Assembly: GCF_056746865.1 (NCBI RefSeq)
Contig: NZ_CM163382.1
Direction: 5' to 3' (one strand)
DNA length: 64,000 bases
Numbering within the stretch: position 1 is the first letter of the stretch; the number at the start of each line of letters is the position of its first letter. Shown one piece after another: positions 44,734 through 47,175 of the stretch. A program made the translations under genes and the position numbers. The notes beneath the pieces are model-generated. The model was not told the DNA's origin. It ran no database searches and saw only the letters and a program-made list of their open reading frames with translations.

Positions 44734-45521
44734 ATTTTCGTTATGTCCTGGGCCTTAAGTGTATCAAAAACAGCAAGTCCCAAGGCAAAAGCACTGATAG
44801 CGTCTGCTTCATTGCCCCAAAAATAGAGAGGTTTCAGTCCTACATTATTAATGAATTTTTTGCATAAGTGATATCAAAATCCACATACTAATTTGAGGTT
44901 ACGTTTTAACGTAGACTCATTGTTCATACCTAATGGAGGGACTGACAGTGGAATTTTCCGTATTAAGTAACAATCTGAAAATGCCGATGATGGGATTTGG
45001 TGTTTTTCAGGTTACCGATAAAGACGTGTGCAAACAGTCAGTGTTGAATGCTATCCGCACGGGTTATCGACTCATCGACACTGCAGCGGTATACGGTAAT
45101 GAAGATGCCGTCGGTGAAGCCGTTCGTGAAGCTATATCTGAAGGTTTATGTACCCGAGATGAGTTATTTATAACGTCTAAATTGTGGGTGCAGGATATGT
45201 TGAATCAGGATACGGCAAAAGCAGGTATTGAAGCATCATTAAAAAAATCGGGACTAGAATACTTCGACCTCTATTTATTGCACCAGGCTATGCGCGATTA
45301 TTTCAGTGCGTGGCGTGCACTCGAAGATGCCTATGAAGAGGGCAAATTAAAAGCAATTGGGGTTTCCAATTTCTATCCTCATGTTCTGGCGAACTTTTGT
45401 GAAACGGTAAGAGTTAAACCGATGGTCAACCAGGTCGAGTTGCATCCCTATTTTGCCCAACCAGAGGCGCTGGCAACCATGAAGTATTATAACGTGCAGC
45501 CTGAAGCATGGGCTCCGTTAG

Positions 45522-46716
45522 GGAAGGTGCGAACAAGTCCCTGATATGAGATCATGTTTGTCATCTGGAGCCATGGAACAGGGTTCATCATGAGTCATCA
45601 ACTTACCTTCGCCGACAGTGAATTCAGCAGTAAGCGCCGTCAGACCAGAAAAGAGATTTTCTTGTCCCGCATGGAGCAGATTCTGCCATGGCAAAACATG
45701 GTGGAAGTCATCGAGCCGTTTTACCCCAAGGCTGGTAATGGCCGGCGACCTTATCCGCTGGAAACCATGCTACGCATTCACTGCATGCAGCATTGGTACA
45801 ACCTGAGCGATGGCGCGATGGAAGATGCTCTGTACGAAATCGCCTCCATGCGTCTGTTTGCCCGGTTATCCCTGGATAGCGCCTTGCCTGACCGCACCAC
45901 CATCATGAATTTCCGCCACCTGCTGGAGCAGCATCAACTGGCCCGCCAATTGTTCAAGACCATCAATCGCTGGCTGGCCGAAGCAGGCGTCATGATGACT
46001 CAAGGCACCTTGGTCGATGCCACCATCATTGAGGCACCCAGCTCGACCAAGAACAAAGAGCAGCAACGCGATCCGGAGATGCATCAGACCAAGAAAGGCA
46101 ATCAATGGCACTTTGGCATGAAGGCCCACATTGGTGTCGATGCCAAGAGTGGCCTGACCCACAGCCTAGTCACCACCGCGGCCAACGAGCATGACCTCAA
46201 TCAGCTGGGTAATCTGCTGCATGGAGAGGAGCAATTTGTCTCAGCCGATGCCGGCTACCAAGGGGCGCCACAGCGCGAGGAGCTGGCCGAGGTGGATGTG
46301 GACTGGCTGATCGCCGAGCGCCCCGGCAAGGTAAGAACCTTGAAACAGCATCCACGCAAGAACAAAACGGCCATCAACATCGAATACATGAAAGCCAGCA
46401 TCCGGGCCAAGGTGGAGCACCCATTTCGCATCATCAAGCGACAGTTCGGCTTCGTGAAAGCCAGATACAAGGGGTTGCTGAAAAACGATAACCAACTGGC
46501 GATGTTATTCACGCTGGCCAACCTGTTTCGGGCGGACCAAATGATACGTCAGTGGGAGAGATCTCACTAAAAACTGGGGATAACGCCTTAAATGGCGAAG
46601 AAACGGTCTAAATAGGCTGATTCAAGGCATTTACGGGAGAAAAAATCGGCTCAAACATGAAGAAATGAAATGACTGAGTCAGCCGAGAAGAATTTCCCCG
46701 CTTATTCGCACCTTCC
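45522..46716 (-). mobile_element. IS5 (1195 bp)
   Basis: terminal repeats GGAAGGTGCGAA at both ends; TTAG direct repeats at 45518-45521 and 46717-46720; exact IS5 length. Confidence 0.95.
45554..46570 (+). CDS. insH: IS5 transposase InsH
   Basis: 338 aa recognisable IS5 transposase ([35 protein letters not shown]...). Confidence 0.95.
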
Positions 46717-47175
46717 TTAGGTGGTGGACGACATAAACCCTTTGAAAATAATCTGCTTCAGAGTATTGCAGATGCCCATCAAAAATCGATTTCTCAAGTC
46801 ATTCTGCGTTGGAATATTCAACGGGGAGTGGTCGTTATTCCGAAATCGACACATCAACAGCGTATCGAAGAAAATTTTGCTATCTGGGATTTCTCACTGA
46901 CAGAGAAAGAAATGGCACAAATTAGTTCGCTTGATTTGGGTTATGTTGGGGAGTCGGTAAAACATTTTAATCCTGAATTTGTTCGTGGTTGTCTTGCTGT
47001 AAAAATACATGATTGATATTAATCATGTATTTTACCTGAGACGACAAGAATCTTTTAACAGGGGAGTGATATTGATCTTCACTCTGTCATATCTCCGGTA
47101 ATATGGCGTCAGGCTTCATCATCAGAAAGGGGGCCTGACGCCTGAAAAAGTGAACAACAGACAGTGTTCGGATTA

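Follow-up and report, generated by a model that had tools for sequence, protein, structure and literature searches.

This study revealed that a complete copy of IS5 interrupts an aldo-keto reductase (AKR) gene in the window, the whole 64-kb stretch of Escherichia coli DNA that was analysed. The insertion is real, has been inherited within a small lineage, as follows from a junction common to two complete genomes (118UI and HR12-1), and is already present in public annotation. We consider that it very probably represents a recent neutral or near-neutral decay, by IS5, of a dispensable gene in one E. coli sublineage. According to this explanation, IS5 would recently have transposed into a TTAG site inside a monocistronic accessory AKR gene and thereby inactivated it, and the sublineage carrying the insertion would comprise 118UI, HR12-1 and the strain of the window. 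Its loss would have been tolerated since E. coli as a species can dispense with the gene. This is an ordinary, routine event of a known kind, already annotated in RefSeq.

The IS5 element and its boundaries

The element occupies positions 45522-46716 on the plus strand and is exactly 1195 bp long. Its ends and its coding content are as follows:

45518-45521: left TTAG of the target-site duplication; strain EC10, at its empty site, has only one TTAG
45522-45537: left inverted repeat (IRL) of IS5, found as an inverted-repeat match
45590-46570, plus strand: ins5A, intact, 326 aa, starting at ATG 45590, assigned by Pfam, NCBIfam and PGAP and co-oriented with the interrupted AKR gene
46701-46716: right inverted repeat (IRR) of IS5, found as an inverted-repeat match
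46717-46720: right copy of the target-site duplication, TTAG, read from the sequence

The earlier note had described a complete IS5 of 1195 bp with TTAG duplications, and this description is borne out on both sides of the element. IS5 is recognised by a length of about 1195 bp and by 16-bp terminal inverted repeats of the form GGAAGGTGCGAAYAAG. Here the repeats are GGAAGGTGCGAACAAG at the start and GGAAGGTGCGAATAAG at the end (given as the reverse complement), with 15 of 16 positions matching, and they are the sole two matches within the 64-kb window, against 0 expected by chance. The 4-bp duplication corresponds to a YTAR-type target, as is typical of IS5.

The transposase is an intact IS5-type DDE enzyme, for which a longer open reading frame of 338 aa, starting at ATG 45554, can also be read. 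Ins5A matches the Pfam families DDE_Tnp_1 (122.8 bits) and DUF772, and scores 365.7 bits with the NCBIfam IS5 family transposase model, whose cutoff is 140. The element is nearly identical to the reference: 5 of its 1195 nucleotides differ from a K-12 copy, none of them in the 3' 177-bp region, and the protein carries a single substitution, R to K. Many genomes, and also 46-kb plasmids, carry the same allele, with 100% identity over 311 bp. Given the repeats, the intact transposase frame and the near identity to K-12 IS5, we conclude that this copy is complete and presumably active.

The interrupted aldo-keto reductase gene

The reductase gene is present as two fragments on either side of the element, and an intact paralog lies elsewhere in the window:

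44948-45521, plus strand: 5' part of the AKR gene (191 codons and 1 nt), a PGAP pseudogene 'missing C-terminus' in 118UI
46720-47016, plus strand: 3' part of the AKR gene (98 codons and the stop, counting the G of the TTAG), a PGAP pseudogene 'missing N-terminus'
38052-38903, minus strand: paralogous AKR gene, intact, 283 aa, 44% identical to the restored protein

The earlier reading, in which the N-terminal 191 codons had been separated from approximately 100 C-terminal ones, agrees with these fragments. The gene starts with the GTG at 44948, which is preceded by a GGAGG Shine-Dalgarno sequence, and its frame continues into IS5, where it ends at the TGA at 45542-45544. The resulting truncated product has 198 aa, of which 192 are native and 6 are encoded by the element. 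The breakpoint in the protein falls after Leu191, within the APLGGG segment. The window consequently holds no uninterrupted coding sequence for this member of the AKR superfamily, the frame being split after codon 191.

The earlier note had made its interpretation depend on the two halves joining in frame, and they do. Excising IS5 and one TTAG in silico gave an open frame of 870 nt (289 aa) free of internal stops, and the same excision over 5,870 bp of the locus left 0 mismatches to the uninterrupted locus of strain EC10, whose counterpart is annotated as the intact aldo/keto reductase WP_001309281.1. The insertion of IS5 into the AKR gene is thus demonstrated and is not a chance resemblance.

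With regard to the restored protein, its sequence identifies it as a genuine aldo-keto reductase. Pfam PF00248 covers residues 23-262 with 148.5 bits (cutoff 24), and the protein aligns over its full length with Thermotoga TM1009 (PDB 1vp5; E = 3e-85), Bacillus subtilis YtbE and YvgN (3b3d and 3d3f; E = 5e-73 and 1e-67, respectively) and E. coli DkgA (1mzr; E = 4e-58). The restored protein shares with these enzymes both the catalytic tetrad and the IPKS motif. The best NCBIfam model is that of DkgA (NF008598), so that the earlier designation 'DkgA-like' holds at the family level. As DkgA itself, however, the protein does not qualify, since its score of 235.5 bits is below the cutoff of 425; the DkgB model gave 163.8 bits against a cutoff of 327. 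On these scores, the restored protein is a distinct paralog and not an orthologue of DkgA or DkgB.

The tetrad residues D44, Y49, K78 and H112, which align with their 1vp5 equivalents, are all encoded by the 5' fragment. In the AKR structure, the region past the codon-191 breakpoint carries the IPKS...R...N cofactor-binding segment, which is encoded here by the 3' fragment. The truncated product would therefore keep the catalytic tetrad but lose the last quarter of the (alpha/beta)8 barrel, together with the NADPH-binding IPKS...R...N segment. Since both of these would be missing, the 198-aa product should be inactive, as judged from AKR structure. What counts against full inactivation is that the 198-aa fragment might keep some residual function.

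The paralog at 38052-38903 is intact, as previously stated, and the alignment with the restored product that the earlier note had proposed gave the 44% identity listed above. The suggestion that the interruption is tolerated through redundancy with this paralog is nevertheless unnecessary, because the two proteins are only this similar, because the paralog is itself accessory (full length in 1,892 of the 5,426 complete E. coli genomes), and because K-12 has only a remnant of the AKR gene and lacks both the paralog and the whole 6.4-kb cluster around it.

Distribution and annotation of the insertion

The distribution was determined with a 300-bp junction query, composed of 150 bp of the AKR gene and 150 bp of the IS5 left end, in 5,426 complete E. 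coli genomes. The left junction was complete in only two of them, 118UI, from urine in Mexico City, and HR12-1, from faeces in Osaka, Japan, which are independent complete assemblies. In both, the PGAP/RefSeq annotation places an 'IS5-like element IS5 family transposase' between two pseudogene pieces labelled 'aldo/keto reductase'. The window corresponds to positions 324884-388883 of 118UI save for four positions, and the flanks of the IS5 locus are identical to 118UI over 18.3 kb; the DNA is that of 118UI or of a strain almost identical with it. An exact 32-mer across the left junction gave 0 matches in a metagenome scan, and 118UI was found in the literature in incidental mentions only.

The insertion can hence serve as a clean lineage marker, being confined to these two complete genomes. 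In other respects it matters little, adding one further example of an accessory gene decaying through an insertion sequence, here in a uropathogenic E. coli lineage.

Regulatory surroundings and possible host-driven transcription of ins5A

Upstream of the reductase gene lie the following features:

43843-44700, minus strand: ykgA-like regulator gene, intact, encoding an AraC-type HTH and a GyrI-like domain (Pfam HTH_18, HTH_AraC and GyrI-like)
44701-44947: divergent intergenic region of 247 bp, which should hold the promoters of the AKR gene and of the ykgA-like gene

The AKR gene adjoins ykgA, as the earlier note had stated, and the two genes are divergent. The regulator scores 195 bits with the NCBIfam RobA model, below the cutoff of 380, and is a Rob paralog. 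The insertion leaves this regulator without its presumed partner gene.

The orientation of the element raises the possibility that ins5A is transcribed from the AKR promoter, maybe under the control of the Rob-like regulator, which would turn this copy into a conditionally hyperactive source of transposition. The native ins5A promoter is very weak, and in K-12 the co-oriented IS5 nested in nmpC is the only copy with detectable ins5A fusion mRNA, which originates from PnmpC; this copy dominates transposition (PMC11677980). The nmpC::IS5 case is thus a precedent for ins5A being driven by a host promoter, and several features of the window are consistent with it: ins5A shares its strand with the AKR gene, the AKR start is located 574 bp upstream of IS5, and a scan of 44600-47300 found no terminator-like sites between the AKR start and ins5A. 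In addition, HR12-1, which carries the same insertion, has 17 matches to the junction query, which includes the IS5 left end, compared with 6 in 118UI.

However, the same scan of 44600-47300 detected no promoter-like site upstream of the AKR gene and no strong sigma-70 consensus in 44701-44947, and its promoter and terminator totals were at or below shuffle expectation. A Rob/MarA/SoxS-type marbox, AYNGCACNNWNNRYYAAAY, was searched for with up to 2 mismatches; the window as a whole gave 23 matches against 17.8 expected, with none in 44701-44947. With zero sites in this region, a marbox link from the ykgA-like regulator to the AKR promoter was dropped. Furthermore, 118UI has few IS5 copies, and the difference in copy number between 118UI and HR12-1 has many possible causes. 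On balance, a hyperactive copy under host control, which the analogy with nmpC::IS5 suggests, is unlikely. The co-oriented nesting nonetheless provides a natural test case for a host promoter driving ins5A.

Recurrent loss of the reductase gene

The AKR gene, in its restored form, is full length in 2,937 of the 5,426 complete genomes (54%), from pathotypes that include O157:H7 and APEC. Approximately 2,100 genomes, K-12 among them, give partial matches only, and 376 give no match. In K-12 (EMG2), two internal deletions have reduced the gene to about 169 bp of its 3' end, and the ykgA-like gene is truncated next to IS3, the K-12 pseudogene aligning to window positions 44040-44963. We take these K-12 remnants to be the pseudogenes named ykgQ (b4631) and ykgA (b0300). 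No functional study of the locus was found in the literature on ykgA and ykgQ.

Other insertion sequences have entered the gene as well. SCU-313 carries IS1 at the equivalent of window positions 45055-45063, in an allele that is otherwise 100% identical. In 90-1 (chicken, China) and G3 (wastewater, Panama), ISKpn26 occupies exactly the same TTAG as IS5 does here, with the same duplication. ISKpn26 measures 1196 bp and has 91% identity with IS5; in these two genomes it lies in the opposite orientation, and the AKR allele that it has hit is a different one, with 7 mismatches. As deletions, IS1, ISKpn26 and IS5 are found in separate genomes, the gene has been lost repeatedly, by different routes.

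This pattern counts to some extent against neutral decay, since repeated independent losses could reflect selection for loss. The loss of the reductase would then be adaptive: its inactivation would be selected in some niches, with insertion sequences as one of several convergent routes. At least four independent routes of inactivation are known, namely the K-12-type deletions (in the approximately 2,100 genomes), IS1, ISKpn26 and IS5. However, relaxed selection on an accessory gene yields the same pattern, more than half of the genomes still have the gene at full length, O157:H7 and APEC included, and each IS allele of the gene is rare, occurring in 1 or 2 of the 5,426 genomes. We regard an adaptive loss as improbable, and neutral or near-neutral decay remains our preferred explanation.

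The reuse of the TTAG at codon 191 could also be taken to indicate a hot spot. As the AKR gene contains 9 YTAR sites, a second independent insertion would hit an already used site with a p of ~0.11, which is not significant and too weak for a hot spot to be claimed, and this claim was dropped. A broader proposal, by which this TTAG would be a structural hot spot for the IS5 family (IS5, ISKpn26 and a third IS5 allele) and the inserted IS5 a stress-inducible master copy, combines such reuse with the nmpC analogy and is improbable. Since the site has been reused by a different element of the IS5 family, it could nevertheless serve studies of IS5 target choice.

Effects on the neighbouring genes

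Downstream of the 3' fragment, the window shows the following:

47002-47033: AT-rich perfect 14-bp hairpin overlapping the AKR stop, z = -3.9 on the plus strand and -3.7 on the minus strand
47105-47142: GC-rich hairpin of -25 kcal/mol in the AKR-rclC intergenic region
47176-47769, minus strand: rclC, convergent with the AKR gene, IS5 being located 460 bp past its stop codon

The first hairpin may act as a weak terminator in both directions, separating the AKR gene from rclC. No intact co-oriented gene lies downstream of 46716 ahead of the convergent rclC. The AKR gene is monocistronic, converging on rclC at one end and diverging from the ykgA-like gene at the other, and a polar effect on a downstream gene is impossible; under neutral decay, no downstream gene would suffer from polarity.

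The earlier note had also proposed that IS5 can serve rclC or the ykgA-like gene as a mobile promoter or enhancer and so alter expression. IS5 is documented to activate glpFK, flhDC, fucAO and bgl (PMC2753651, PMC11894529), and these precedents speak for the proposal. Activation of glpFK comes from the 177-bp 3' end of IS5, which contains a bend and an IHF site and is located just upstream of the promoter, at -126.5; flhDC is activated by insertions at -99.5 and -169.5, in which the ins5A promoter is distal (PMC2753651). In fucAO, a fusion promoter formed from upstream genomic DNA and the ins5A promoter reads through IS5 into the co-oriented operon (PMC11894529).

The geometry of the window is unlike any of these. 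The 3' end of IS5 (IB) does not face a promoter from about 100-170 bp upstream, as in glpFK and flhDC; it faces only the AKR remnant, followed by the 3' end of rclC, which is convergent. The promoter of rclABC lies beyond rclA, on the far side, more than 2.7 kb away. The start codon of the ykgA-like gene is 822 bp from the 5' end of IS5, which is the end that is non-activating in glpFK. A fucAO-type activation involves an activator site upstream of IRL and a co-oriented operon downstream, and there is no such operon here. Transcription reading out of IS5 would be antisense to rclC and would therefore not activate it, and the two hairpins stand between the element and this gene. The locus is AT-rich (38-45% GC), that is, the kind of DNA that is silenced by H-NS, and activation of the bgl type depends on neither the position nor the orientation of the element. 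Relief of silencing in this bgl-like, position-independent manner is accordingly the sole remaining route to activation; it is conceivable, and nothing supports it. An activating role of this IS5 copy is thus very unlikely, and under neutral decay we infer that the neighbouring genes are unaffected.

Finally, of the four positions at which the window and 118UI differ, three are inside IS5, where both alleles are widespread natural variants, and these three differences may have arisen from gene conversion, re-insertion or a polishing error. Although such a concentration is typical of repeat-polishing trouble, the idea that the split gene is an assembly artefact with a misplaced IS copy has a negligible probability and was rejected, since the junctions recur in two complete genomes that are independent of each other and come from different countries; the exact empty site in EC10 and the perfect 4-bp duplication of a YTAR-type target also argue against it.

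Comparison with known systems

Structurally, there is no difference between the window copy and K-12 IS5 (IS5 family, IS5 group), the window copy being a common natural allele. The locus itself is the one that holds the ykgQ and ykgA pseudogenes in K-12, between fdeC/eaeH and rclC, and the AKR gene is inactivated in both. In contrast to K-12, however, the window has an intact regulator gene, and its AKR gene could be restored by precise excision.

In E. coli, yqhC-yqhD-dkgA forms an aldehyde-response module in which a gene for an AraC-type regulator is divergent from a reductase gene. The locus in the window resembles this module in that an AraC-type regulator gene is divergent from an aldehyde/ketone reductase gene, but its regulator differs in being a Rob paralog with a GyrI-like domain.

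The insertion resembles nmpC::IS5 in its arrangement, as in both cases IS5 is nested in a host gene with which it is co-oriented, here with both on the plus strand, an arrangement in which transcription from the host promoter can enter ins5A, and the host gene is inactivated. The two cases differ in that measurements for nmpC::IS5 cover both the fusion mRNA and its influence on transposition, whereas the window copy is known from its sequence. With regard to glpFK, flhDC, fucAO and bgl, the element is the same and the 3' 177-bp bend/IHF region of the window copy is unchanged relative to K-12. In those systems, however, IS5 resides in a regulatory region ahead of a promoter or operon with which it is co-oriented, whereas here it lies inside a coding sequence and is followed by no gene of the same orientation.

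Two insertion sequences at one target site

This analysis revealed that the TTAG at 45518-45521, the left copy of the target-site duplication of IS5 (45522-46716, + strand) in the aldo-keto reductase (AKR) gene, is also occupied by a second element in other strains. ISKpn26, an element of 1196 bp with 91% identity to IS5, was found at the identical TTAG in strains 90-1 and G3, at approximately positions 2647-3850 of the respective loci L010 and L011, and in the orientation opposite to that of IS5. A TTAG duplication also flanks ISKpn26, and the AKR allele background of its insertion is different from the IS5-bearing allele. 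ISKpn26 and IS5 are independent insertions at this TTAG. As the AKR gene contains nine sites of the YTAR type targeted by IS5, with a chance of reuse of p ~0.11, there is only a weak hint that the TTAG is an insertion hot spot.

Variation and copy number of IS5

Only 4 of the 64,000 positions were mismatched between the window and 118UI, an E. coli strain sharing the AKR::IS5 junction, three of them inside IS5:

46105, inside IS5
46168, inside IS5
46386, inside IS5
61347, betT-pdeL intergenic region

The same three IS5-internal differences are present in HR12-1, which also shares the junction. At 46386, the residue encoded in the transposase Ins5A is Tyr in the window and Ser in 118UI. Both IS5 alleles, the window type and the 118UI type, are widespread as natural variants. 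The internal differences could have resulted from gene conversion between IS copies, from re-insertion at the same site or from a repeat-polishing error. A 300-bp junction query including the IS5 left end gave 6 matches in 118UI (NZ_CP032515.1) and 17 in HR12-1 (NZ_AP041112.1), which suggests that IS5 expanded in HR12-1 later than the insertion common to both strains.

Surroundings of the interrupted gene

The 159-bp intergenic region between the convergent AKR gene and rclC exhibits two strong hairpins:

47002-47033, AT-rich, perfect stem of 14 bp that overlaps the stop codon of the AKR gene
47105-47142, GC-rich stem, -25 kcal/mol

No clear T-run follows either hairpin, and neither of them was called in the scan for terminators.

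A second gene inactivated by an IS in the window is paoA (19413-21363), encoding an aldehyde oxidoreductase Fe-S subunit and interrupted by an IS3-family element (19905-21162, 1258 bp; named ISEc31 by PGAP) with TG...CA termini and a 3-bp duplication, CAC, on both flanks. Elsewhere, part of a LysR gene (10851-11081) and an additional, incomplete ykgR copy (11362-11430) adjoin tRNA-Thr (10648-10723); this arrangement (10648-11430 and 30894-31119) points to a scar left at the tRNA by an old insertion or deletion. The annotation of ykgL records a frameshift.

Comparison with K-12

The 6.4-kb cluster at 32497-38903 comprises genes for an NADH-dependent flavin oxidoreductase, an alpha/beta hydrolase, two LysR regulators and two AKRs, and resembles an island for the detoxification of carbonyls or electrophiles. 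This accessory cluster is absent from K-12 EMG2, where the interval from ykgR to the truncated eaeH/fdeC holds only a 90-nt pseudogene fragment. The fdeC (eaeH) gene of the window (39469-43722, 1417 aa) is intact, unlike that of K-12, which is truncated by IS3; the same IS3 adjoins the truncated ykgA.
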